Virus record (IMG/VR): IMGVR_UViG_3300045988_126062
Reading direction: 5' to 3' (one strand)
Origin: a virus
Length of the DNA: 64,000 nt
Under the pieces are notes generated by a model. It was given only the letters and a program-made list of their open reading frames with translations. It made no database searches and was not told the origin of the DNA. Below, one piece after another: positions 4,794-49,460 of the stretch. The position numbers and the translations under genes are program-made. Within the stretch, counting starts at the first letter, position 1; each line of letters opens with the position of its first letter.

Positions 4794-5267
4794 ATGAAAG
4801 AGGAAGTAGAACGGATAAAGAGGTTGGTTGGCATAGATCATAATAGATGGGAGCAGCCTTGTACATGTGATAAATGCAAGAACATGTGTAAGGTTTCTTG
4901 TATTGGTACACCAAAGGACATGGAAGCTATCATAGATGCAGGATATGCTGACAGGCTAAAAGAGACAATGTGGATGGTGGGGTATCTTGCAGTGAAAGAA
5001 AAACCAATAGCGATGATCCAACCAACAGAGAAAGACGGGTGGTGCGTGTTCCGCCGGCCAGACGGTCTCTGCGAGCTGCATGACCGTGGACTAAAGCCGA
5101 CTGAAGGAGTTCTGGCTTCTTGTAAGGTGGTTGAAGAAGACAATGTCCCAACATATGAAACGTCTGTACTTAGAGCAGTAGCTCATGAGTGGGTTAAGGT
5201 AGAGAACTTCGCAACTATAATGAGGGTCGTTTTTAAATTTTTGCATGAAAATGAACGTAGAAAATAA
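4794..5267 (+). CDS. Hypothetical Cys-rich protein (157 aa)
   Basis: ORF track; CTCDKCKNMCKVSC cluster. Confidence 0.5.
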   Translation: MKEEVERIKRLVGIDHNRWEQPCTCDKCKNMCKVSCIGTPKDMEAIIDAGYADRLKETMWMVGYLAVKEKPIAMIQPTEKDGWCVFRRPDGLCELHDRGLKPTEGVLASCKVVEEDNVPTYETSVLRAVAHEWVKVENFATIMRVVFKFLHENERRK

Positions 5268-5655
5268 ATTAGATAAAGTGGTTAATATCCTAAAAGAAAA
5301 AGGATTTGTAGTATATAGAAAGGGCGGGAAGGAGCCAGGTGTGTTTTACGCTAAAGAAGGTGACAGCCGGATAGGATTCGTTTATCCCAACAACGGATAT
5401 ATATATGATAGAATAAAAATGTGGTCTTTTTCAAGGATATATAAACCACATAAGAAAACCGGGTCTTCGTGTTTAATGAGCGTCAGCGACGAATTTACGA
5501 TAGAGAATGCGATTAAGAACATAGAGGATAGACTGTGGGTGAATTATATAAAAGATGGTAACAGAAAACGACCAGAAGAATATAAAAATATAAGAGAATT
5601 TGTTGGTAGCTTCACTAAATTCTACAACTCTGTAGAATTAGTTGAGGTTAAGTAG
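5245..5655 (+). CDS. Hypothetical protein (136 aa)
   Basis: ORF track. Confidence 0.5.
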   Translation: MKMNVENKLDKVVNILKEKGFVVYRKGGKEPGVFYAKEGDSRIGFVYPNNGYIYDRIKMWSFSRIYKPHKKTGSSCLMSVSDEFTIENAIKNIEDRLWVNYIKDGNRKRPEEYKNIREFVGSFTKFYNSVELVEVK

Positions 5656-5733: not shown

Positions 5734-5985
5734 ATGGGAAAAAGAGACAAGGAGATACCTTATGAGGTAGTCATACAGGAAAGAAAAAGAGTGGATTTAT
5801 ACGGTAACGTAGTGTATTATATCTATTGGTTTGATAAATATGGGTACAATATCACAAACGAATGGAAATTTTGGAGCAAGGGTCCGAAAAAGAAATACGA
5901 TAGAGTCAATTGTTATCTAACAGATAGTTGGTTGAAGGAATACTGTAAGAATAACAATTTAAAGATAAGTAGAATAAAGGAATGA
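5734..5985 (+). CDS. Hypothetical protein; start trimmed to the ATG (MGKRDKE...) downstream of the terminator and an AAGGAGGA Shine-Dalgarno-like sequence
   Basis: The ORF-track call at 5662 runs through the terminator hairpin; an internal ATG with an SD-like sequence is more plausible. Confidence 0.45.
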   Translation: MGKRDKEIPYEVVIQERKRVDLYGNVVYYIYWFDKYGYNITNEWKFWSKGPKKKYDRVNCYLTDSWLKEYCKNNNLKISRIKE

Positions 5986-18062: not shown

Positions 18063-18224
18063 TCCAAAAAACAAACAAAATGGAAGAAAAAGAGATAAAA
18101 GAAGCTATGATTGAAGCCCTGACGCACTTAGAGGGGTGTAAGTATTTCGTGGCCACGATAGTAAATAATCGAGAATAATACATAACTCATACAAATCATA
18201 ACCAATTTGTATTGTATTATGCAT

Positions 18225-18463
18225 AATAGCCAAAAGCTATTCCGATTATTAGCCTAAGTGTTGAAACAAACACTACGTTATTTAAGAATAGATAGTTACC
18301 TACGGATATTTACCCAAGTCTGTAGCTCTAAGGTAGGTGATTAAACAGTTCTGGTATTCAGGAACAGTGTTGCTTACGAAAAACCTTAAATAACATTGGC
18401 GATGGGTACTAACAGAGTTTTACTCTGACTTATGTTGAATAAACATTAAAAACGTTTGTAGAT
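18225..18463 (+). ncRNA. IscB omega-RNA, copy A: variable guide-like segment (~18225-18246) plus conserved scaffold starting TATTAGCCTAAG at 18247 and running to the iscB start
   Basis: Directly upstream of an IscB gene; same scaffold found at 30020 and on the minus strand at 49345, with compensatory base changes in two stems. Confidence 0.65.
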
Positions 18464-19690
18464 ATGGTGTACGTACAAGACATAAATGGTAAACCTCTGA
18501 TGCCAACAACGAGGCATGGTAAGGTTAGGAGACTGCTTAAAGATAAAAAGGCAGTCGTTGTGAACCTATGTCCGTTTACCATCCGATTAACGTACGTAAC
18601 ATCTGATTACAAACAGGAAATTGTGTTAGGCGTTGATGCTGGAACTAAGCATGTTGGTTTATCAGCAACGACGAAAAGCAAAGAACTTTACAGCAGTGAA
18701 GTAATTCTTAGAAATGATATCGTAGATCTTTTGTCTACCAGAAGAGAGCTACGAAAAACAAGACGGAATAGATTGAGACATAGAAAACATCGTTTTAACA
18801 ATAGAATAAAAAGTAGGCGTCCCGGATGGACAGCACCTTCGGTGAAATACAAAGTAGACGCCCATATTCGTGTTATTGACAATGTATGTTCTATATTACC
18901 AATATCTCGTATTGTTATCGAAGTAGCTCAATTCGATACTCAAAAGATTAACAATCCTAATATATCAGGTAAAGAATATCAGGAGGGTGATCAACTTGGA
19001 TTTTGGAACGTTAGGGAATATGTTTTAGCAAGAGATGGACATAAATGCCAGCATTGCAAGGGAAAGTCAAAAGACCCAGTATTGAATGTTCATCATATTG
19101 AATCACGAAAGACAGGTGGAGATTCCCCATCTAATCTTATTACCTTATGTGAAACTTGTCATAAAGAATACCATAAAGGTAATATAGATTTAAAAATCAG
19201 AAGAGGCAAGTCGCTTCGCGACGCAGCCGTAATGGGAATAATGAAATGGAGATTGTATGAAGAACTAAAATCTAAATACGACAACATTTCTATGACTTTC
19301 GGTTATGTTACAAAATACAATAGGATTAAACATGGTATTGAAAAATCTCATGTTTTCGATGCATTTGTTATTTCTAAAAACTTTGATGCTATAAGGTTAG
19401 GATATTATTATAAAGTAAGATTAGTAAGAAGACATAATCGTCAGATCCATAAACAAAAGATTCCAAAAGGAGGAATCAAGAGGTTAAATCAATCTCCATT
19501 TGAAGTTTTTGGTTTCCGTTTGTTTGATAGGGTTATGTTTGAAAACAGTTATTACTTTATATTTGCAAGGCGTAAAACCGGTAGTTTTAATATTCGAGAT
19601 ATTGATGGTAAAAACCAAAGAGATATTACATACAAGAAATTGAAATTATCAAGGTGTAAACGCTTTATGGTACAAAAGGAAATGGATTGA
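18464..19690 (+). CDS. iscB: IscB RNA-guided nuclease (PLMP, RuvC-I, Arg-rich bridge helix, RuvC-II, HNH, RuvC-III), 408 aa
   Basis: PLMP motif; RuvC-I LGVDAGTKHVG; bridge helix RRELRKTRRNRLRHRKHRFNNR; RuvC-II IVIEVAQFD; HNH HKCQHCKG...NVHHIESRKTGGDSPSNLITLCETCHKEYH; RuvC-III HVFDAFVIS. Confidence 0.85.
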   Translation: MVYVQDINGKPLMPTTRHGKVRRLLKDKKAVVVNLCPFTIRLTYVTSDYKQEIVLGVDAGTKHVGLSATTKSKELYSSEVILRNDIVDLLSTRRELRKTRRNRLRHRKHRFNNRIKSRRPGWTAPSVKYKVDAHIRVIDNVCSILPISRIVIEVAQFDTQKINNPNISGKEYQEGDQLGFWNVREYVLARDGHKCQHCKGKSKDPVLNVHHIESRKTGGDSPSNLITLCETCHKEYHKGNIDLKIRRGKSLRDAAVMGIMKWRLYEELKSKYDNISMTFGYVTKYNRIKHGIEKSHVFDAFVISKNFDAIRLGYYYKVRLVRRHNRQIHKQKIPKGGIKRLNQSPFEVFGFRLFDRVMFENSYYFIFARRKTGSFNIRDIDGKNQRDITYKKLKLSRCKRFMVQKEMD

Positions 19691-26622: not shown

Positions 26623-27336
26623 ATGTACATCAATTTCAGACAACTTGCAGCATCAGACATGACTCCTAATGATCTGGCTAATCTTCTTGCTATAAGACAG
26701 AAGGATACGGTTATGATCGAAGCCATGCCGGAAGAAGATGCTGGGAGGTATATAGAGCTTGGCCTGGCTGAGAAATTAAAATCAGGCGTGATGAGATTGA
26801 CCAACAAGGGAACGTCTTTTGTGAATTATATAGAGACACCGGAAATGACAGACGAGGTTCTGGAAACGTTGAAGATTATGATAGGAATGTACGAATCATA
26901 TTCAAAAGACATAGGTGTCAGCAGAAAAGAAGCAGAATCCAGATTGTGTTGGTTTATGGGTAACACCTCATTCAAGAAAGAGGTCATACTTCAGGTAACG
27001 GAATCTTATATAGCAGAGTCAGGAGATTATACAATGAGCTTATGTAACTTCATATGGAAACCGCCTTCTCAAGCTTTTTCAGTTCATATGAACCTTAAAA
27101 ATTCAAAGCTCTTTGACTTAATAGCTGAAAAATTTAAGATCGCTACCGAGCCTTATTTGGAGCCTAAGAAGAATAAGGAAATGGATTGGTTGTTTGCCGT
27201 ATCTAAATTGCCTACGCCGCCGGCTAAAGGCAATCCGGATTATTTATTTACCGGAAGTTCTGAAACAGACAAAGAGAGATTGAAAAACATAAAAACATAC
27301 TTATTTAACAAAATTAGAAAGCAATGGAAAAAGTAA
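26623..27336 (+). CDS. Hypothetical protein (237 aa)
   Basis: ORF track. Confidence 0.5.
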   Translation: MYINFRQLAASDMTPNDLANLLAIRQKDTVMIEAMPEEDAGRYIELGLAEKLKSGVMRLTNKGTSFVNYIETPEMTDEVLETLKIMIGMYESYSKDIGVSRKEAESRLCWFMGNTSFKKEVILQVTESYIAESGDYTMSLCNFIWKPPSQAFSVHMNLKNSKLFDLIAEKFKIATEPYLEPKKNKEMDWLFAVSKLPTPPAKGNPDYLFTGSSETDKERLKNIKTYLFNKIRKQWKK

Positions 27337-27575
27337 GAATCAGAAAGATAATAGAGGATATAATTATTACTCAGTTTCTTAATTCGGAAATAGATATAGT
27401 TCATGAAGAAGATGTGTCGTTTAAAGAACTTGGATTAGATTCTGTTGATCGAATTGAGCTTGATGTGATGGTGGAACAAAAATTCAATATTGTTATTATT
27501 GATTATGATATGGAGACCATCAAAGATATGACTGATCTTGTTTACAAAATAATAACAGAAGGGTATGGGAAGTGA
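27324..27575 (+). CDS. Hypothetical protein (83 aa)
   Basis: ORF track. Confidence 0.4.
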   Translation: MEKVRIRKIIEDIIITQFLNSEIDIVHEEDVSFKELGLDSVDRIELDVMVEQKFNIVIIDYDMETIKDMTDLVYKIITEGYGK

Positions 27576-28059
27576 TATAATTTTATGCATGGCTTTAATA
27601 GCATCATTTGCTTTTGTTATACAGTTTTTGTTGTCGATATTAGGATCTGATCTGGATACGGATATTGATATTGATGATGCTTCTGATTTAAGTATGTCTT
27701 TGTCGGACATCATATCATTCAAGGGCATAACACATTTTATTCTTGGATATAGCTGGACTACCTACTTTTCGGGTTCCCATTTAGTAGGGGTTGTGATAGG
27801 GTCGTTTTTCTTTATCGTTTTGTTTTACGTATATAAGTTACTTCTTAAGTTAAAGCAAGAAATGGTGTACGAATGTCCGGAAGATTTAAATGGCAGAGAG
27901 GTGGAGATAGTGTTTAGATCAGGGAAGAATCATTATATGGTAAATATTTCGAAAAATGGAAGACAGGAGCAAATGAGAGTAAGATGCTTGTCTGGAAAAA
28001 CTTACAAAAACGGTGACAAGGTGAATATAAAATACGAAGAAGGAGAATTAATTATCTAA
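27565..28059 (+). CDS. NfeD-like membrane protein (multi-TM N-terminus + beta-rich OB-like C-terminus), the usual partner of SPFH proteins
   Basis: Three hydrophobic segments then GREVEIVFRSGKNHYMVNIS...; sits directly upstream of the flotillin gene, as in the yuaF-floT arrangement. Confidence 0.5.
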   Translation: MGSDIILCMALIASFAFVIQFLLSILGSDLDTDIDIDDASDLSMSLSDIISFKGITHFILGYSWTTYFSGSHLVGVVIGSFFFIVLFYVYKLLLKLKQEMVYECPEDLNGREVEIVFRSGKNHYMVNISKNGRQEQMRVRCLSGKTYKNGDKVNIKYEEGELII

Positions 28060-28090
28060 TTTTTTTATCAACAATTAGATTTTAAAAGTT

Positions 28091-29791
28091 ATGACAACAA
28101 TTATGTACGTGTCAGCCATCTTAGCTGTAGTGATTATTTTGACAATCATCGGAGTCTTATCAAGGTATCGTAGATGTAAGCCTAATCAGGTCTTGGTCGT
28201 TTATGGTAAGACAGGTGGAGAGAAGAAATCGGCGAAATTATATCATGGTGGAGCAGCATTCGTGTTGCCTATTATCCAAAGCTATGATATTTTATCTATG
28301 GAGCCTATGCAAATAGATTGTAGGCTTACCGGTGCTTTGTCATCTCAGAATATTAGAGTAGATGTGCCTACAACTATTACAGTAGCTATCAGTACAAATC
28401 CTGAAATCATGCAAAATGCAGCAGAAAGACTTTTGGGGATGGATACCGAATCTACTGAAAATCTTATTACAGACATCGTTTACGGTCAGATGCGTTTGAT
28501 TATTGCCGAAATGACAATCGAAAAACTTAATTCTGATAGGGATGAGTTTTTGGATAAGGCAAGAAAAAACATTGATAACGAACTTAATAAATTGGGTCTT
28601 TATCTTTTGAACATTAACATCAGTGACATCAGAGATGAAGCCGGCTACATCATGAATCTTGGTAAAGAGGCTGAAAGCAAGGCTCTGAACGAAGCACAGG
28701 CTAATATCGAAGAACAGGAAAAGCTGGGTGCTATTAAGATTGCTGTACAACAGAAGGAAAAAGAAACGGCTGTAGCTAATACCCAAAAAGAGCAAGAGAT
28801 TCAAATTGCCTATACTGAAAAAGAAAAAGAAACGGTAGTAGCTGAAACAAAGAAAGAAAAAGAAGTAGCTTTGGCTTTAACCGATAAAGAAAAACAGATC
28901 GGTGTAGCTCAAGCCGATAGAGATAGGGCTGCGGCTATAGCAAAGACTTTGGCTGACAAGGGATCAGCGATTGCAAGATCTAAGGCGGAACTTGAAGTAA
29001 ACAAAGCTGAAGCCGAAAGAATGGAAGAAGTTGGAAAGAATAAAGCTGAAGCTGACAAACAAGCAGCTATAGCAATACAAGACTCTGAAGCTCAGATTAA
29101 GAAAGCTGAGGCTGAGAAAAATGCTTCTGTAGGCTACAACAATGCCCAGAAAGAGGTTGCTGTATCAGAATCAGAATTGCAGGTTATCAAAGCTCAATCA
29201 GAAAAGAAAGCCGGAGAAGAGAAAGTTAAATCGGAAGCGGCTGTGAAAACGGCAAAAGAGCTTGCTGATAAAGAAGTGGAAGAAGCTAAAGCTAAGAAGG
29301 TTCAAGCTGCGCTTAAAGCTGAAAAGATTGTGCCGGCTGAAATTCAGAAGCAGGAGGCTATGTTGCAAGCTGATGCCGAGGCCGAGAAGATCAAACGCCG
29401 GGCCGATGCTGAAGCAGCAGCACATTTGGCAAAAGCAGAGGCGGAAGCAAAAGCTATTCAGATGAAGCTGGAAGCGGAAGCCGAAGGTAAGAAAAAGTCG
29501 TTGATGGCAGAAGCCGACGGATTTAAGGCTATGGTGGAAGCAGCAGAATCCAATCCTCAGATCGCCATCCAGTACAAGATGGTTAATCAGTGGAAAGAAA
29601 TTGCTGGAGAACAGGTTAAGGCGTTCGAGCACATCAATCTCGGAAATATCACGGTATTTGACGGCGGTCAGAACAGCACCGGTAATTTCCTTAACAATGT
29701 TGTTAAGGCCGTTGCTCCGGCATTGGGAGTCATTGATCAGCTTCCGATTGCAGATACTTTAAAGAAGTTAAAAGGAGATGACAAAAAATAA
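28091..29791 (+). CDS. SPFH/band-7 flotillin-like protein (N-terminal TM, SPFH domain, long EA/KE-repeat coiled coil), 566 aa
   Basis: YGQMRLIIAEMTIEKLNSDRDEF SPFH core; AEAEAKA-type repeats. Confidence 0.75.
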   Translation: MTTIMYVSAILAVVIILTIIGVLSRYRRCKPNQVLVVYGKTGGEKKSAKLYHGGAAFVLPIIQSYDILSMEPMQIDCRLTGALSSQNIRVDVPTTITVAISTNPEIMQNAAERLLGMDTESTENLITDIVYGQMRLIIAEMTIEKLNSDRDEFLDKARKNIDNELNKLGLYLLNINISDIRDEAGYIMNLGKEAESKALNEAQANIEEQEKLGAIKIAVQQKEKETAVANTQKEQEIQIAYTEKEKETVVAETKKEKEVALALTDKEKQIGVAQADRDRAAAIAKTLADKGSAIARSKAELEVNKAEAERMEEVGKNKAEADKQAAIAIQDSEAQIKKAEAEKNASVGYNNAQKEVAVSESELQVIKAQSEKKAGEEKVKSEAAVKTAKELADKEVEEAKAKKVQAALKAEKIVPAEIQKQEAMLQADAEAEKIKRRADAEAAAHLAKAEAEAKAIQMKLEAEAEGKKKSLMAEADGFKAMVEAAESNPQIAIQYKMVNQWKEIAGEQVKAFEHINLGNITVFDGGQNSTGNFLNNVVKAVAPALGVIDQLPIADTLKKLKGDDKK

Positions 29792-29798
29792 ATACAAT

Positions 29799-29830
29799 GG
29801 CCCAAGGTTACACTTGGGCCTAATTGAAGA
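29799..29830. terminator. Perfect 8-bp hairpin GGCCCAAG-gttaca-CTTGGGCC after the flotillin gene; the T-run is on the minus-strand side
   Basis: Inverted repeat read in sequence. Confidence 0.35.
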
Positions 29831-29999
29831 AGCAAAAGCAGCATTTATAGATTTCCTGCCGGCAGGGACAGTGCTTTACTAATTATAATATTTTTAACAT
29901 GGATTTTGGACAAGATTTAGAACCAGAAGAACTGACCGGGCATTATGATCGGTGTTATAACCCCAAATAGTATTAACCCAATATAATTCTATTATAAAA

Positions 30000-30268
30000 G
30001 TTTAATACATCTCTTTCAGAGATCGGGTTATTAGCCTAAGCCTTGAAACAGAGGCTACGTTATTTGAGAATAAATAGTTACCAAGGAATGTTTATCCAAG
30101 TTTCTTGCTCTAAGGATGGTGATTAAACAGGAGTAGTGTATTTGACGAAACAGTGTTGCCATTATATAAAACCTCTTATAACATTGGCGATGGGTACTTA
30201 CAGGAGAAATCATGACTTATCCCTAACGGGATTTACATCTACCAAGGAGACCGGAAGGTCTCCGAGGG
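30000..30268 (+). ncRNA. Orphan omega-RNA-like scaffold, copy B (no adjacent IscB): distinct 5' guide-like sequence, scaffold from 30020, 3' end replaced by GGAGACC-ggaa-GGTCTCC hairpin (30246-30263)
   Basis: Aligns with copies A and C over ~170 nt; stems retained through compensatory changes (GTGTT/AACAC vs GCCT/AGGC; CTAC/GTAG vs CAAG/CTTG). Confidence 0.6.
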
Positions 30269-30320
30269 GATGTATTAAAACATATGAATAGCTTTAAATA
30301 TATTTAATAGAATATGAGAT

Positions 30321-47904: not shown

Positions 47905-49143
47905 TTACTTTAATATAATCGGATGCCTCTTCCCTCTAATGAGTTTAAACTTTTTGCGTGAAACATCTTTTGAATTTTCTCCGTTGAAATCCCTGATATT
48001 GAAACTCCCTGATTTTCTCCTTCCATAAACAAAACATATTTTATTATTATACAACACTTTATCAAACAACCTAAAACCAAAAACCTCAAAAGGAGCTTGA
48101 TTGTTTTTCTTCTTTCCTCCTTTTAAAATTTTCATTTTATGTATTTGCCTATTATGCCTACGAATTAAACGTTTTAAATATTGACATCCGATTCGTTTCG
48201 CATTAATGTTCTTAGAAATGACAAACGCGTCGGATGTATGGGATTTTTCAATCCCGTATTTAATCCGATTATGTTTCGTAATGTAACCAAACGTCATAGA
48301 AACTCTGTCGTATCTGGATCTCAGTTCTTCATACAACTTCCATTTCATGATCCCCATTACGGCCGCGTCGCGGAGCGACGATCCCCGTTTGATCTTCAAA
48401 TCTATATTACCTTTATGGTATTCTTTGTGACAAGTTTCACATAAGGTAATAAGATTAGAAGGGGAATCACCTCCCGTTTTTCGGGATTCAAGATGATGGA
48501 CATTAAGGATCTTATCTTTTGACTTCCCTTTACAATACTGACATTTATGCCCATCCCTTGCTAAAACATACTCCCTTGTGTTCCAAAACTCAAGTTGATC
48601 ACCTTCCTGGTATTCTTTACCTAATATTTCAGGATTCTTAATCTTTTGAGTATCAAATTGAGCTACTTCAATAACAATACGAGATATTGGTAGTATAGAG
48701 CAAATATTTTCAATAACACGAATATGAGCGTCTACTTTGTATTTCACCGAAGGTGCTACCCATCCTGGACGCTTGCTTTTTATTCTATTATTGAAACGAG
48801 GTTTTCTATACCTCAACCTATTCCGTCTTGTTCTTCGTAGCTCCCTTCTGGTAGACAAAAGATCTACGATATCATTTCTAAGGATCACTTCACTACTGTA
48901 AAGTTCTTTGCTTTTCGTTGTAGCTGATAAACCAACATGTTTAGTACCAGCATCAACGCCTAACACGATTTCTTGTTTGTAATCAGATGTAACGTACATT
49001 AATTTGATGGTAAACGGACATAGGTTTACAACGATTGCCTTTTTGTCTTTAAGCAGTCTCCTTACCTTACCATGCCTCGTTGTAGGCATCATAGGTTTAC
49101 CATTTATATCCTGTACGTACACCATACTTACAAACGTTTTCAA
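47905..49143 (-). CDS. iscB: IscB RNA-guided nuclease, second copy (412 aa; about 90% identical to the copy at 18464; alternative start MVYVQ at 49122)
   Basis: Same PLMP, RuvC-I/II/III, bridge-helix and HNH motifs as copy 1; C-terminal ~25 aa diverge. Confidence 0.85.
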   Translation of the reverse strand: MKTFVSMVYVQDINGKPMMPTTRHGKVRRLLKDKKAIVVNLCPFTIKLMYVTSDYKQEIVLGVDAGTKHVGLSATTKSKELYSSEVILRNDIVDLLSTRRELRRTRRNRLRYRKPRFNNRIKSKRPGWVAPSVKYKVDAHIRVIENICSILPISRIVIEVAQFDTQKIKNPEILGKEYQEGDQLEFWNTREYVLARDGHKCQYCKGKSKDKILNVHHLESRKTGGDSPSNLITLCETCHKEYHKGNIDLKIKRGSSLRDAAVMGIMKWKLYEELRSRYDRVSMTFGYITKHNRIKYGIEKSHTSDAFVISKNINAKRIGCQYLKRLIRRHNRQIHKMKILKGGKKKNNQAPFEVFGFRLFDKVLYNNKICFVYGRRKSGSFNIRDFNGENSKDVSRKKFKLIRGKRHPIILK

Positions 49144-49368
49144 TGTTTATTCAACATAAGTCAGAGTAAAACTCTGTTAGTACCCATCGCCAATGTTATT
49201 TAAGGTTTTTCGTAAGCAACACTGTTTCGCAAATACACTACTCCTGTTTAATCACCCACCTTAGAGCTACAGACTTGGGCAAACATCCGTAGATAACTAT
49301 CTATTCTCAAATAACGTAGCCTTCGTTTCAAGGCTTAGGCTAATATCCGGACCATTTATGGTACATTA
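49144..49368 (-). ncRNA. IscB omega-RNA copy C (minus strand): scaffold 49345 down to 49144, guide-like segment ~49346-49368
   Basis: Reverse complement aligns with copies A and B; directly upstream of the iscB start. Confidence 0.65.
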
Positions 49369-49460
49369 AAACCTTATAATGAAATTATATTGTTTTAATG
49401 TTATTTCGGATATGAAAACAAATTCGCCACCGTATCTTTTATTAGCCAATTCTTCTACAG

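Follow-up and report, generated by a model that had tools for sequence, protein, structure and literature searches.

An NfeD-like and flotillin gene pair of Bacteroidales type in a crAss-like gut phage

Flotillin genes of bacteria are known to be paired with a gene for an NfeD membrane protein, as in yuaF (nfeD)-floT of Bacillus subtilis and floA-nfeD of Staphylococcus aureus. In S. aureus, FloA and NfeD confine and stabilize unfolded membrane proteins without ATP, and NfeD stabilizes the flotillin oligomer (PMC11222466). The human flotillins 1 and 2 form a membrane-attached dome (PMC11260169, PMC13000311), which has been solved as a 44-mer (9bq2, 9l3g). Here we analyzed a gene pair of this kind in a viral genome, the IMG/VR record IMGVR_UViG_3300045988_126062, of which a stretch of 64,000 nt (referred to as the window) was studied. 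A first-pass annotation made from the sequence alone had proposed that positions 27565–29791 hold a phage-encoded operon of an NfeD-like and a flotillin (SPFH) gene. For the flotillin, an annotation already exists in the GenBank record of a relative of this phage, and the phage-borne nfeD-flotillin operon is a new case of a known operon.

Both open reading frames (ORFs) are real and lie on the + strand exactly at the positions first given: an NfeD-like gene for a 164-aa membrane protein (27565–28059) and a gene for a 566-aa flotillin-family SPFH protein (28091–29791). Each begins with ATG, and the two co-directional genes are separated by a gap of 31 nt. The phage setting of the pair is secure, because the window shares 93% identity with the complete csAssE-Sib genome (OR575929.1; 151 kb, Caudoviricetes, human gut), the surrounding genes are phage replication genes, and the region recurs in 164 IMG/VR viral contigs; the proposal that the pair is phage-encoded therefore holds. 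The + strand block at ~1–38 kb encodes a primase/helicase, a DnaB-like helicase, a PD-(D/E)XK exonuclease, a helicase and a methyltransferase in addition to the pair, and the - strand block beyond 38 kb encodes very large proteins which are structural according to the csAssE-Sib record. In csAssE-Sib, the partner (WOZ57346.1) and the flotillin (WOZ57345.1) have 98% and 96% protein identity to those of the window and the same neighbours, and the labels given there to the upstream acyl carrier protein (ACP), the partner and the flotillin are ‘acyl carrier protein’, ‘transmembrane protein’ and ‘flotillin family protein’. The csAssE-Sib record does not call the partner NfeD-like, and its genome, unlike the window, is without a 361-nt insertion that carries a HEARO RNA (see below).

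Judged by its profile matches, the 566-aa product is a flotillin-family SPFH protein, not FloT itself. The Pfam Band_7/SPFH profile (PF01145) matches residues 30–211 (28178–28723, +) with an E value of 2.5e-25 and 90 bits against a cut-off of 23.6, spanning profile positions 4–176 of 176. The Flot profile (PF15975) matches the C-terminal domain at residues 450–559 (29438–29767, +) with an E value of 5e-9 and 36.7 bits against a cut-off of 27, spanning positions 1–120 of 124. Both matches exceed the curated cut-offs and are far beyond chance, in agreement with the flotillin identity proposed at first. Residues 4–22 (28100–28156, +) form a predicted hydrophobic anchor, MYVSAILAVVIILTIIGVL, with a mean of 2.83 in a 19-residue Kyte-Doolittle window and followed by the basic residues RYRR. 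The central coiled coil at residues 219–482 (28745–29536, +) consists of ~24 eleven-residue (hendecad) repeats, seen as peaks at lags 11, 22 and 33 in the autocorrelation of hydrophobicity.

In a search of PDB sequences, the nearest solved proteins are human flotillin-2 and flotillin-1 (9bq2 and 9l3g, E 5.6e-23 to 6e-18), and the phage SPFH domain aligns with residues 8–200 of human flotillin-2. Escherichia coli QmcA is a distant, weak match (4e-4), and HflK/C, prohibitin and stomatin were not returned by this search. The phage protein and the human dome share the order of SPFH domain, coiled coil and C-terminal domain, with the best E value (5.6e-23) arising over the SPFH domain and a weaker match in the coiled coil. 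Whereas the human proteins are ~427 aa long, anchored by acylation or a hairpin, and assemble as hetero-oligomers without an NfeD partner, the phage has a single flotillin with a transmembrane-type anchor, ~24 hendecads and an NfeD-like partner. Orthology to B. subtilis FloT was ruled out, as the NCBIfam FloT equivalog NF058507 scores 144.9 bits against a cut-off of 700 and is matched at positions 4–274 of 477 only. The phage pair thus differs from the B. subtilis and S. aureus pairs in its flotillin, which is not a FloT orthologue and has a much longer coiled coil, in a partner that is too divergent for the Pfam NfeD profile and has a conserved acidic loop, and in being phage-borne.

The ~260 residues of coiled coil would also suit a virion component, a tail or fibre protein with a spurious resemblance to SPFH proteins, and a tail component had been named as an alternative by the first-pass annotation itself. 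We regard the virion reading as refuted: the SPFH and Flot matches are full-length, the N terminus carries a membrane anchor, Bacteroidales chromosomes encode ~65%-identical orthologues next to the same partner, and the gene lies in the replication block on the strand opposite to the structural genes.

For the 164-aa partner, searches of Pfam (to E 10), PHROGs, NCBIfam and PADLOC gave no useful match, and lines for SpoIIAA (0.011), RseC (3.7) and KfrB (0.18) were discarded as chance matches. An exhaustive profile search assembled its family, which comprises 444 representatives at 50% identity, most of them 160–185 aa long. In the family alignment a membrane helix comes first, followed by an acidic DxDxDxD loop, an SFKGxxHF motif at the entry to two further helices, and the motif LVGR, with which a C-terminal beta domain begins; residues D33, S51, K53, G54, H57 and F58 are nearly invariant. 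The DxDxDxD loop and the SFKGxxHF motif (residues 28–58; 27646–27738 in the window) are common to the partner family, and their conserved residues may form a metal-binding or regulatory site. The Pfam NfeD profile weakly matches three of 66 family members (best E value 6e-5), and a precomputed match to this profile is carried by none of the 120 listed relatives. One family member bears the Joint Genome Institute (JGI) name ‘membrane protein implicated in regulation of membrane protease activity’, which we take to be the name of COG1585/NfeD, and a 175-aa viral homologue with 35% identity (A0A8S5RJ68, BFVD/UniProt) is named ‘NfeD-like C-terminal domain-containing protein’.

An AlphaFold2 model of the partner, built on 66 sequences, reaches a predicted local distance difference test score (pLDDT) of 89.4 and has helices at residues 2–26, 52–69 and 72–96 and a barrel at 112–163, with the acidic loop (residues 28–45) as its sole low-confidence part. 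The C-terminal beta-barrel (residues ~105–164) is of the oligonucleotide/oligosaccharide-binding (OB) type and is structurally nearest to solved NfeD domains. The architecture of N-terminal membrane helices followed by a ~60-residue C-terminal OB barrel fits the short form of NfeD (YuaF/YbbJ type). The middle helix 52–69 is weakly hydrophobic, and the side of the membrane that holds the acidic loop is set by whether this helix crosses the membrane. When an OB-domain profile was compared with PDB sequences, designed beta-propeller repeat proteins (Bagel/Cake) crowded the results as artefacts of summed short GxxGxIY matches, and the first natural whole-domain match was YuaF, at an E value of only 0.18. 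With the full-length family profile, the matches among PDB sequences were confined to the transmembrane helices of proteins such as erbB-2.

Based on the few weak NfeD matches within the family, the names given to one member and to a viral homologue, the fold and the conserved adjacency to flotillin, we call the partner NfeD-like (short form), meaning that it is distantly homologous to NfeD or, at the minimum, equivalent to it in structure and position; membership by profile is not claimed. Of the profile matches by which the first-pass annotation would have recognized the pair, the SPFH match was therefore found and a direct NfeD match of the 164-aa protein was not; the membrane segments that it suggested looking for are present in both proteins (residues 4–22 of the flotillin, and helix 2–26 in the model of the partner). 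The family search defined a large, unannotated NfeD-like family which is missed by current Pfam models.

A scan with the partner protein, using one genome per species, yielded 80 loci, nearly all of them in Bacteroides, Phocaeicola, Parabacteroides and other Bacteroidales. At all 80 loci the flotillin gene directly follows that of the partner, an arrangement that the phage shares in both gene order and strand, so that the pair indeed mirrors bacterial nfeD-flotillin operons. At 74 loci (Bacteroides, Phocaeicola, Parabacteroides and close relatives) the flotillin is 62–67% identical to the phage copy over ~540–560 residues. One further locus is cut off after 200 residues, and the remaining five, at 39–45% identity, belong to three termite-gut Bacteroidales and to the phage contigs L141 and L147 (see below). 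Chromosomal operons such as those of Bacteroides xylanisolvens XB1A (L138), Phocaeicola massiliensis (L088) and Parabacteroides goldsteinii (L104) resemble the phage pair in genes, order and strand, in protein lengths (~165 aa and 542–566 aa where the start could be called), in the DxDxDxD loop and SFKGxxHF motif of the partner and in the hendecad coiled coil of the flotillin. The partner is only 32–41% identical to the phage copy across the 80 loci. This unequal divergence is a property of the family, since the partner evolves faster than the flotillin among bacteria too (60–62% versus 88% identity between Bacteroides and Parabacteroides). Some Bacteroidaceae genomes contain two paralogous nfeD-like/flotillin operons (L087 and L090, from the same metagenome-assembled genome (MAG), HGM04771), and a Phocaeicola vulgatus-type flotillin (L090–L095, L098, L113) shares only ~73% identity with the common Bacteroides flotillin, falling outside the main clade.

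In a neighbour-joining tree, the phage flotillins (the window copy, that of a sister species at 83% identity, and a 481-aa variant) form a clade that is sister to the Bacteroides/Phocaeicola/Parabacteroides clade and lies inside the Bacteroidales, with the flotillins of termite-gut Tannerellaceae and Dysgonomonadaceae branching outside. The tree of the partner protein is compatible with that of the flotillin. The G+C content at third codon positions is 0.36–0.37 in the cassette and 0.36–0.44 in neighbouring phage genes, compared to 0.42–0.53 in three bacterial copies of the flotillin gene. These comparisons make it evident that the phage genes stem from the Bacteroidales operon, and the simplest reading is that an ancestor of this crAss-like lineage captured the two-gene operon from a Bacteroidales host, after which the genes ameliorated. 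The capture is old, because the phage genes have diverged from the host copies (to 62–69% identity for the flotillin and 32–42% for the partner) and have acquired a phage-like codon G+C content. The phage copies differ from the chromosomal operon in forming their own clade, in this codon composition, in being chained to an ACP gene and in their location among replication genes. With a phage copy that is nested in the host clade and kept under purifying selection, the pair has the features of host-derived auxiliary genes (of the moron or auxiliary metabolic gene (AMG) type). Its capture from the hosts’ own Bacteroidales operon goes beyond what the first-pass annotation had stated.

Flotillin genes are uncommon in phages, as had been presumed: tblastn found a match to the flotillin in nine of 50,697 phage records, and none of the PHROG families matches it. 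Only two of these matches cover most of the protein, namely those in csAssE-Sib and in the T5-like Vibrio phage KIT04. The ‘flotillin family protein’ of KIT04 (LC487410.1; L168, 2180–3850) shows 28% identity over 91% of the query and, like the flotillin of the window, is directly preceded by a small membrane protein. This upstream protein (82 aa) contains three stretches of hydrophobic residues and one short loop of acidic residues but no OB domain; KIT04 infects a gamma-proteobacterium, and its pair is unrelated in origin to that of the window. In the library of papers searched we found none that joins crAss-like phages and flotillin, and nothing relevant on csAssE or on SPFH proteins and anti-phage defense; the one paper with a strong link between a phage (Perkons) and flotillin deals with a phage that integrates into floA of its host and not with a flotillin gene carried by a phage.

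Among related phages, the pair is common within the lineage of the window (lineage 1) and is kept in a sister species and in a second lineage, which answers the call of the first-pass annotation for a survey of relatives. The sister species (L222) keeps the order of a conserved 237-aa protein (g237), ACP, partner and flotillin, and the partner-flotillin pair is present in L082, L083 and L222. The second lineage (lineage 2) consists of gut phages with genomes of 165–193 kb, for which 53 IMG/VR loci carry a divergent pair (flotillin ~42% and partner ~36% identical to those of the window). An NfeD-like match lies upstream of the flotillin at 52 of these 53 loci, 41 of which pass a strict adjacency test. 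Two contigs of this lineage that are labelled as bacterial MAGs also have a phage-like gene organisation. In L141 (CALEBD010000406.1, labelled Clostridium, 153 kb) the flotillin is 58–100% identical to those on the 53 IMG/VR viral contigs, most of which are 165–193 kb long, and L147 (CALUTN010000183.1, labelled Gastranaerophilales, 140 kb) has a flotillin that is 79% identical to that of L141. Both are probably phage genomes that were mis-binned into bacterial MAGs.

The ratio of nonsynonymous to synonymous polymorphism (pN/pS), summed over pairwise comparisons with 78–80 close relatives, is 0.04 for the flotillin and 0.09 for the partner, compared to 0.10 for DnaB and 0.04 for the exonuclease. 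The largest protein cluster of each of the two genes, representing the intact forms, holds ~2,400 member sequences, whereas clusters of truncated or fused forms hold 1–63. These values indicate that the pair is held under strong purifying selection and that its function is retained. The synonymous component (pS) is ~0.22 among close relatives for the flotillin and the downstream gene for a 115-aa protein versus 0.09 for DnaB and 0.07 for ACP, and this higher pS around the cassette suggests recombination with diverged alleles.

Several natural genomes carry damaged versions of the cassette. A 1.6-kb in-frame deletion in L166 (ENA assembly; 5001–5591) fuses the N-terminal part of the partner to the C-terminal end of the flotillin, the partner is frameshifted and the flotillin has a 1.06-kb deletion in L167 (5001–6302), and the partner is lost in L198 (lineage 2). 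The flanking genes are intact in all three, and the junctions show 7–13 nt of microhomology; those of L166 and L167 correspond to 27905|29531 and 28766|29826 in the window. The fused, frameshifted and truncated variants (proteins P0013, P0020, P0027, P0028, P0031 and P0032) represent at least six different junctions, with deletions of 0.8–1.6 kb. Such independent deletions, fusions and frameshifts at microhomologies could be expected of a neutral or decaying passenger without a role in infection, but the pN/pS values equal those of essential replication genes, cluster sizes put the intact forms about a hundredfold above the damaged ones, and the pair has been retained in two divergent lineages and in species-level sister clades with fully ameliorated codon composition. 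A mere passenger is therefore very improbable.

A different type of variation affects the coiled coil, in which insertions and deletions are in-frame, so that otherwise near-identical flotillins range from ~408 to 595 aa. Among relatives, 14 of the 48 distinct in-frame deletions are multiples of 11 aa (binomial p 6e-5), and this over-representation implies that whole hendecads are lost.

The roles put forward by the first-pass annotation (membrane assembly sites, modulation of host membrane proteases, superinfection exclusion) are speculative; how the pair acts can be proposed by analogy to the described flotillin systems. The operon would be expressed together with the surrounding replication (early/middle) genes and be translationally chained to the upstream ACP. 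The N-terminal anchor of the flotillin would insert into the cytoplasmic face of the host inner membrane, and the protein would oligomerize via its SPFH domains and long hendecad coiled coil into a membrane-attached dome like those of solved SPFH complexes; we infer this assembly from 9bq2 and 9l3g (PMC11260169, PMC13000311). The NfeD-like protein would sit in the enclosed membrane patch, its cytoplasmic OB domain binding or stabilizing the flotillin. In this way the phage may supply or boost a host-type scaffold that preserves the organisation of the inner membrane and the stability of membrane proteins. With such support the infected cell would stay productive at a time of falling host gene expression and energy. 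That the cassette maintains or remodels the inner membrane of the infected cell, as an auxiliary host-maintenance module rather than a part of the virion or the replication machinery, is the purpose that we favour, at about even odds.

Several observations weigh against host maintenance. The pair is dispensable for propagation, because natural genomes exist in which it is deleted, fused or frameshifted. The NfeD profile PF01957 does not match the 164-aa protein even at E values up to 10. The host has its own flotillin, ~65% identical to that of the phage and equally long, and maintenance does not explain the benefit of a second copy, which would fit models of interference equally well. Moreover, the chaining to ACP in lineage 1 or to a lipoprotein in lineage 2 is not accounted for by simple maintenance.

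The presence of a host copy brings in the idea that the phage pair co-assembles with, displaces or mimics the host flotillin complex as a counter-defence or takeover device, which we consider possible but on the unlikely side. Host inner-membrane proteins, for instance an FtsH-type protease or membrane-acting abortive-infection effectors, would then be sequestered or re-routed. Mixed oligomers are conceivable, as the phage and Bacteroidales flotillins align over ~557 residues without large gaps and SPFH proteins do form hetero-oligomers (flotillin-1/2). The coiled-coil length of phage variants shifts by whole hendecads, which would also be in line with such a device. The classic case of an SPFH influence on a phage decision is HflK/HflC-FtsH, which acts on the stability of lambda CII and was named as the ‘high frequency of lysogenisation’ locus. 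In E. coli, HflK and HflC form an SPFH cage on the inner membrane that encloses the FtsH protease (PMC13220708), a precedent for such a device. HflK/C belong to a different SPFH subfamily without a significant sequence match to the phage flotillin, are host-encoded, and build a periplasmic cage. The partner has diverged from its host counterpart much more than the flotillin, which would speak for interference, but it outpaces the flotillin among bacteria too, so that its divergence needs no special cause, and no PADLOC or anti-defence family matches the pair.

Superinfection exclusion, by a cage that covers or immobilizes the inner-membrane components used for DNA entry by competing phages, would agree with the membrane location of the proteins, with their place in the early/middle block, and with a dispensable cassette whose presence/absence polymorphism is typical of exclusion genes. 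We give this idea little credence, as neither protein resembles any known exclusion protein in PHROGs or PADLOC, and host-type housekeeping scaffolds that are kept in two phage lineages under strong purifying selection contrast with exclusion genes, which usually turn over fast.

The genes upstream of the pair form a chain with it. The g237 gene (26623–27336, +), recognized as an ORF that is conserved in the sister species, overlaps the start of the 83-aa ACP gene (27324–27575, +) by 13 nt, and the end of the ACP gene overlaps the start of the NfeD-like gene by 11 nt; g237 is possibly co-translated with the ACP-NfeD-flotillin block. ACP matches the Pfam PP-binding profile (7.7e-6) and phrog_5934 (2.1e-8), with the NCBIfam ACP models remaining under their cut-offs, and its phosphopantetheine-serine motif GLDSVD is intact. 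It is kept in 79 of 81 close loci and in the sister species L222 under weaker constraint (pN/pS 0.38), and it is found neither beside the bacterial operons nor in phage lineage 2. The association with ACP is thus specific to phage lineage 1 and not part of the bacterial operon. The g237 protein, considered as a possible phosphopantetheinyl transferase partner of ACP, has no match among protein families, PDB entries or other phages; it is 76% identical and in the same position in L222, with a pN/pS of 0.06. Its single-sequence AlphaFold2 model (pLDDT 35) was discarded. In lineage 2, the position of ACP is taken at 21 of the 53 loci by a lipoprotein of ~75 aa with a lipobox. Small upstream lipoprotein ORFs were located at 5771–6001 in L141, 5763–5981 in L147 and 377–604 in L083. 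The small upstream ORFs of lineage 2 had been considered as diverged ACPs, which was ruled out as they encode lipobox lipoproteins; the lipoprotein gene does not accompany the bacterial operons.

A scan for terminator-like sites called none between the ACP start and the flotillin stop. Eight nt after the flotillin stop begins a G+C-rich 8-bp stem-loop, GGCCCAAGGTTACACTTGGGCC (29799–29820, not assigned to a strand), which the same scan called on the - strand and which is without a T-tract on the + strand; it may mark where the transcription unit ends, or it may stabilize the RNA. The overlapping or closely spaced frames, the absence of a terminator-like site between them and the stem-loop after the flotillin stop suggest, together with the position of the pair, that it is co-expressed with the replication (early/middle) genes. 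A scan for sigma-70 promoters returned 19 sites versus 12.3 expected; it is uninformative for Bacteroidales or crAss-type promoters and was not used.

This arrangement, a pair within the replication block that is chained as g237-ACP-NfeD-flotillin, with the order kept in the sister species and a small lipoprotein replacing ACP in lineage 2, would favour a scaffold for a phage process, such as a membrane patch for replication or packaging, the timing of holin action and lysis, or an ACP-linked lipid or acyl transfer. Against this, ACP and g237 are missing from the bacterial operons and from lineage 2 and are hence not obligatory partners, the variants in which the pair is deleted keep all neighbouring genes intact, and the annotation of the related complete genome lists no further gene of lipid metabolism. 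We therefore consider such a scaffold unlikely.

Beyond maintenance of the host membrane, it is conceivable, but doubtful, that cages built by the phage, or host cages poisoned and re-programmed by co-assembly, create a phage-controlled compartment of the inner membrane which confines a specific client. Candidate clients in this proposal are a protease or a membrane-acting defence effector of the host, or else a lipid or acyl step of the phage that depends on ACP, and the number of hendecads would set the height of the cage and its compatibility with the host flotillin. If true, this would be the first virus-encoded SPFH compartment in bacteria.

The window also contains elements related to IscB nucleases. 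A full-length HEARO RNA (Rfam RF02033; 29957–30201, +; 95.2 bits against a gathering score of 83) sits in the 530-nt gap after the flotillin gene and has no adjoining nuclease ORF. HEARO RNAs are a class associated with IscB HNH nucleases (omega RNA). The 361-nt segment at 29959–30319 is present in ~13 of 83 related loci and precisely missing from the rest, including csAssE-Sib, and further copies with ~79% identity occur elsewhere in some relatives (L007, L022 and L037), so that the segment looks like a mobile orphan omega-RNA element. Two more HEARO RNAs, at 18198–18413 on the + strand (106.3 bits) and 49176–49413 on the - strand (89.1 bits), each lie directly upstream of an IscB-type ORF (408 or 412 aa) that encodes an RRXRR domain (E 1e-58 to 1e-60) together with an HNH domain. 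Together they make up two apparently complete IscB-type elements at 18198–19690 (+) and 47905–49413 (-).

The role of bacterial flotillins and their NfeD partners is still debated, and here a gut phage of lytic type keeps a captured copy of both. Selection on the pair is as strong as that on replication genes, and the lineage ranks among the most abundant phages in the human gut. Its strong retention in this lineage and in a second one therefore argues that, in Bacteroidales, the scaffold has a strong, selectable effect within a single infection cycle. Intact, deletion and hendecad-length variants circulate together and represent a compact natural experiment on flotillin cages. With the pair, the host-derived auxiliary genes known in crAss-like phages, of which there are very few, gain a module for membrane organisation.

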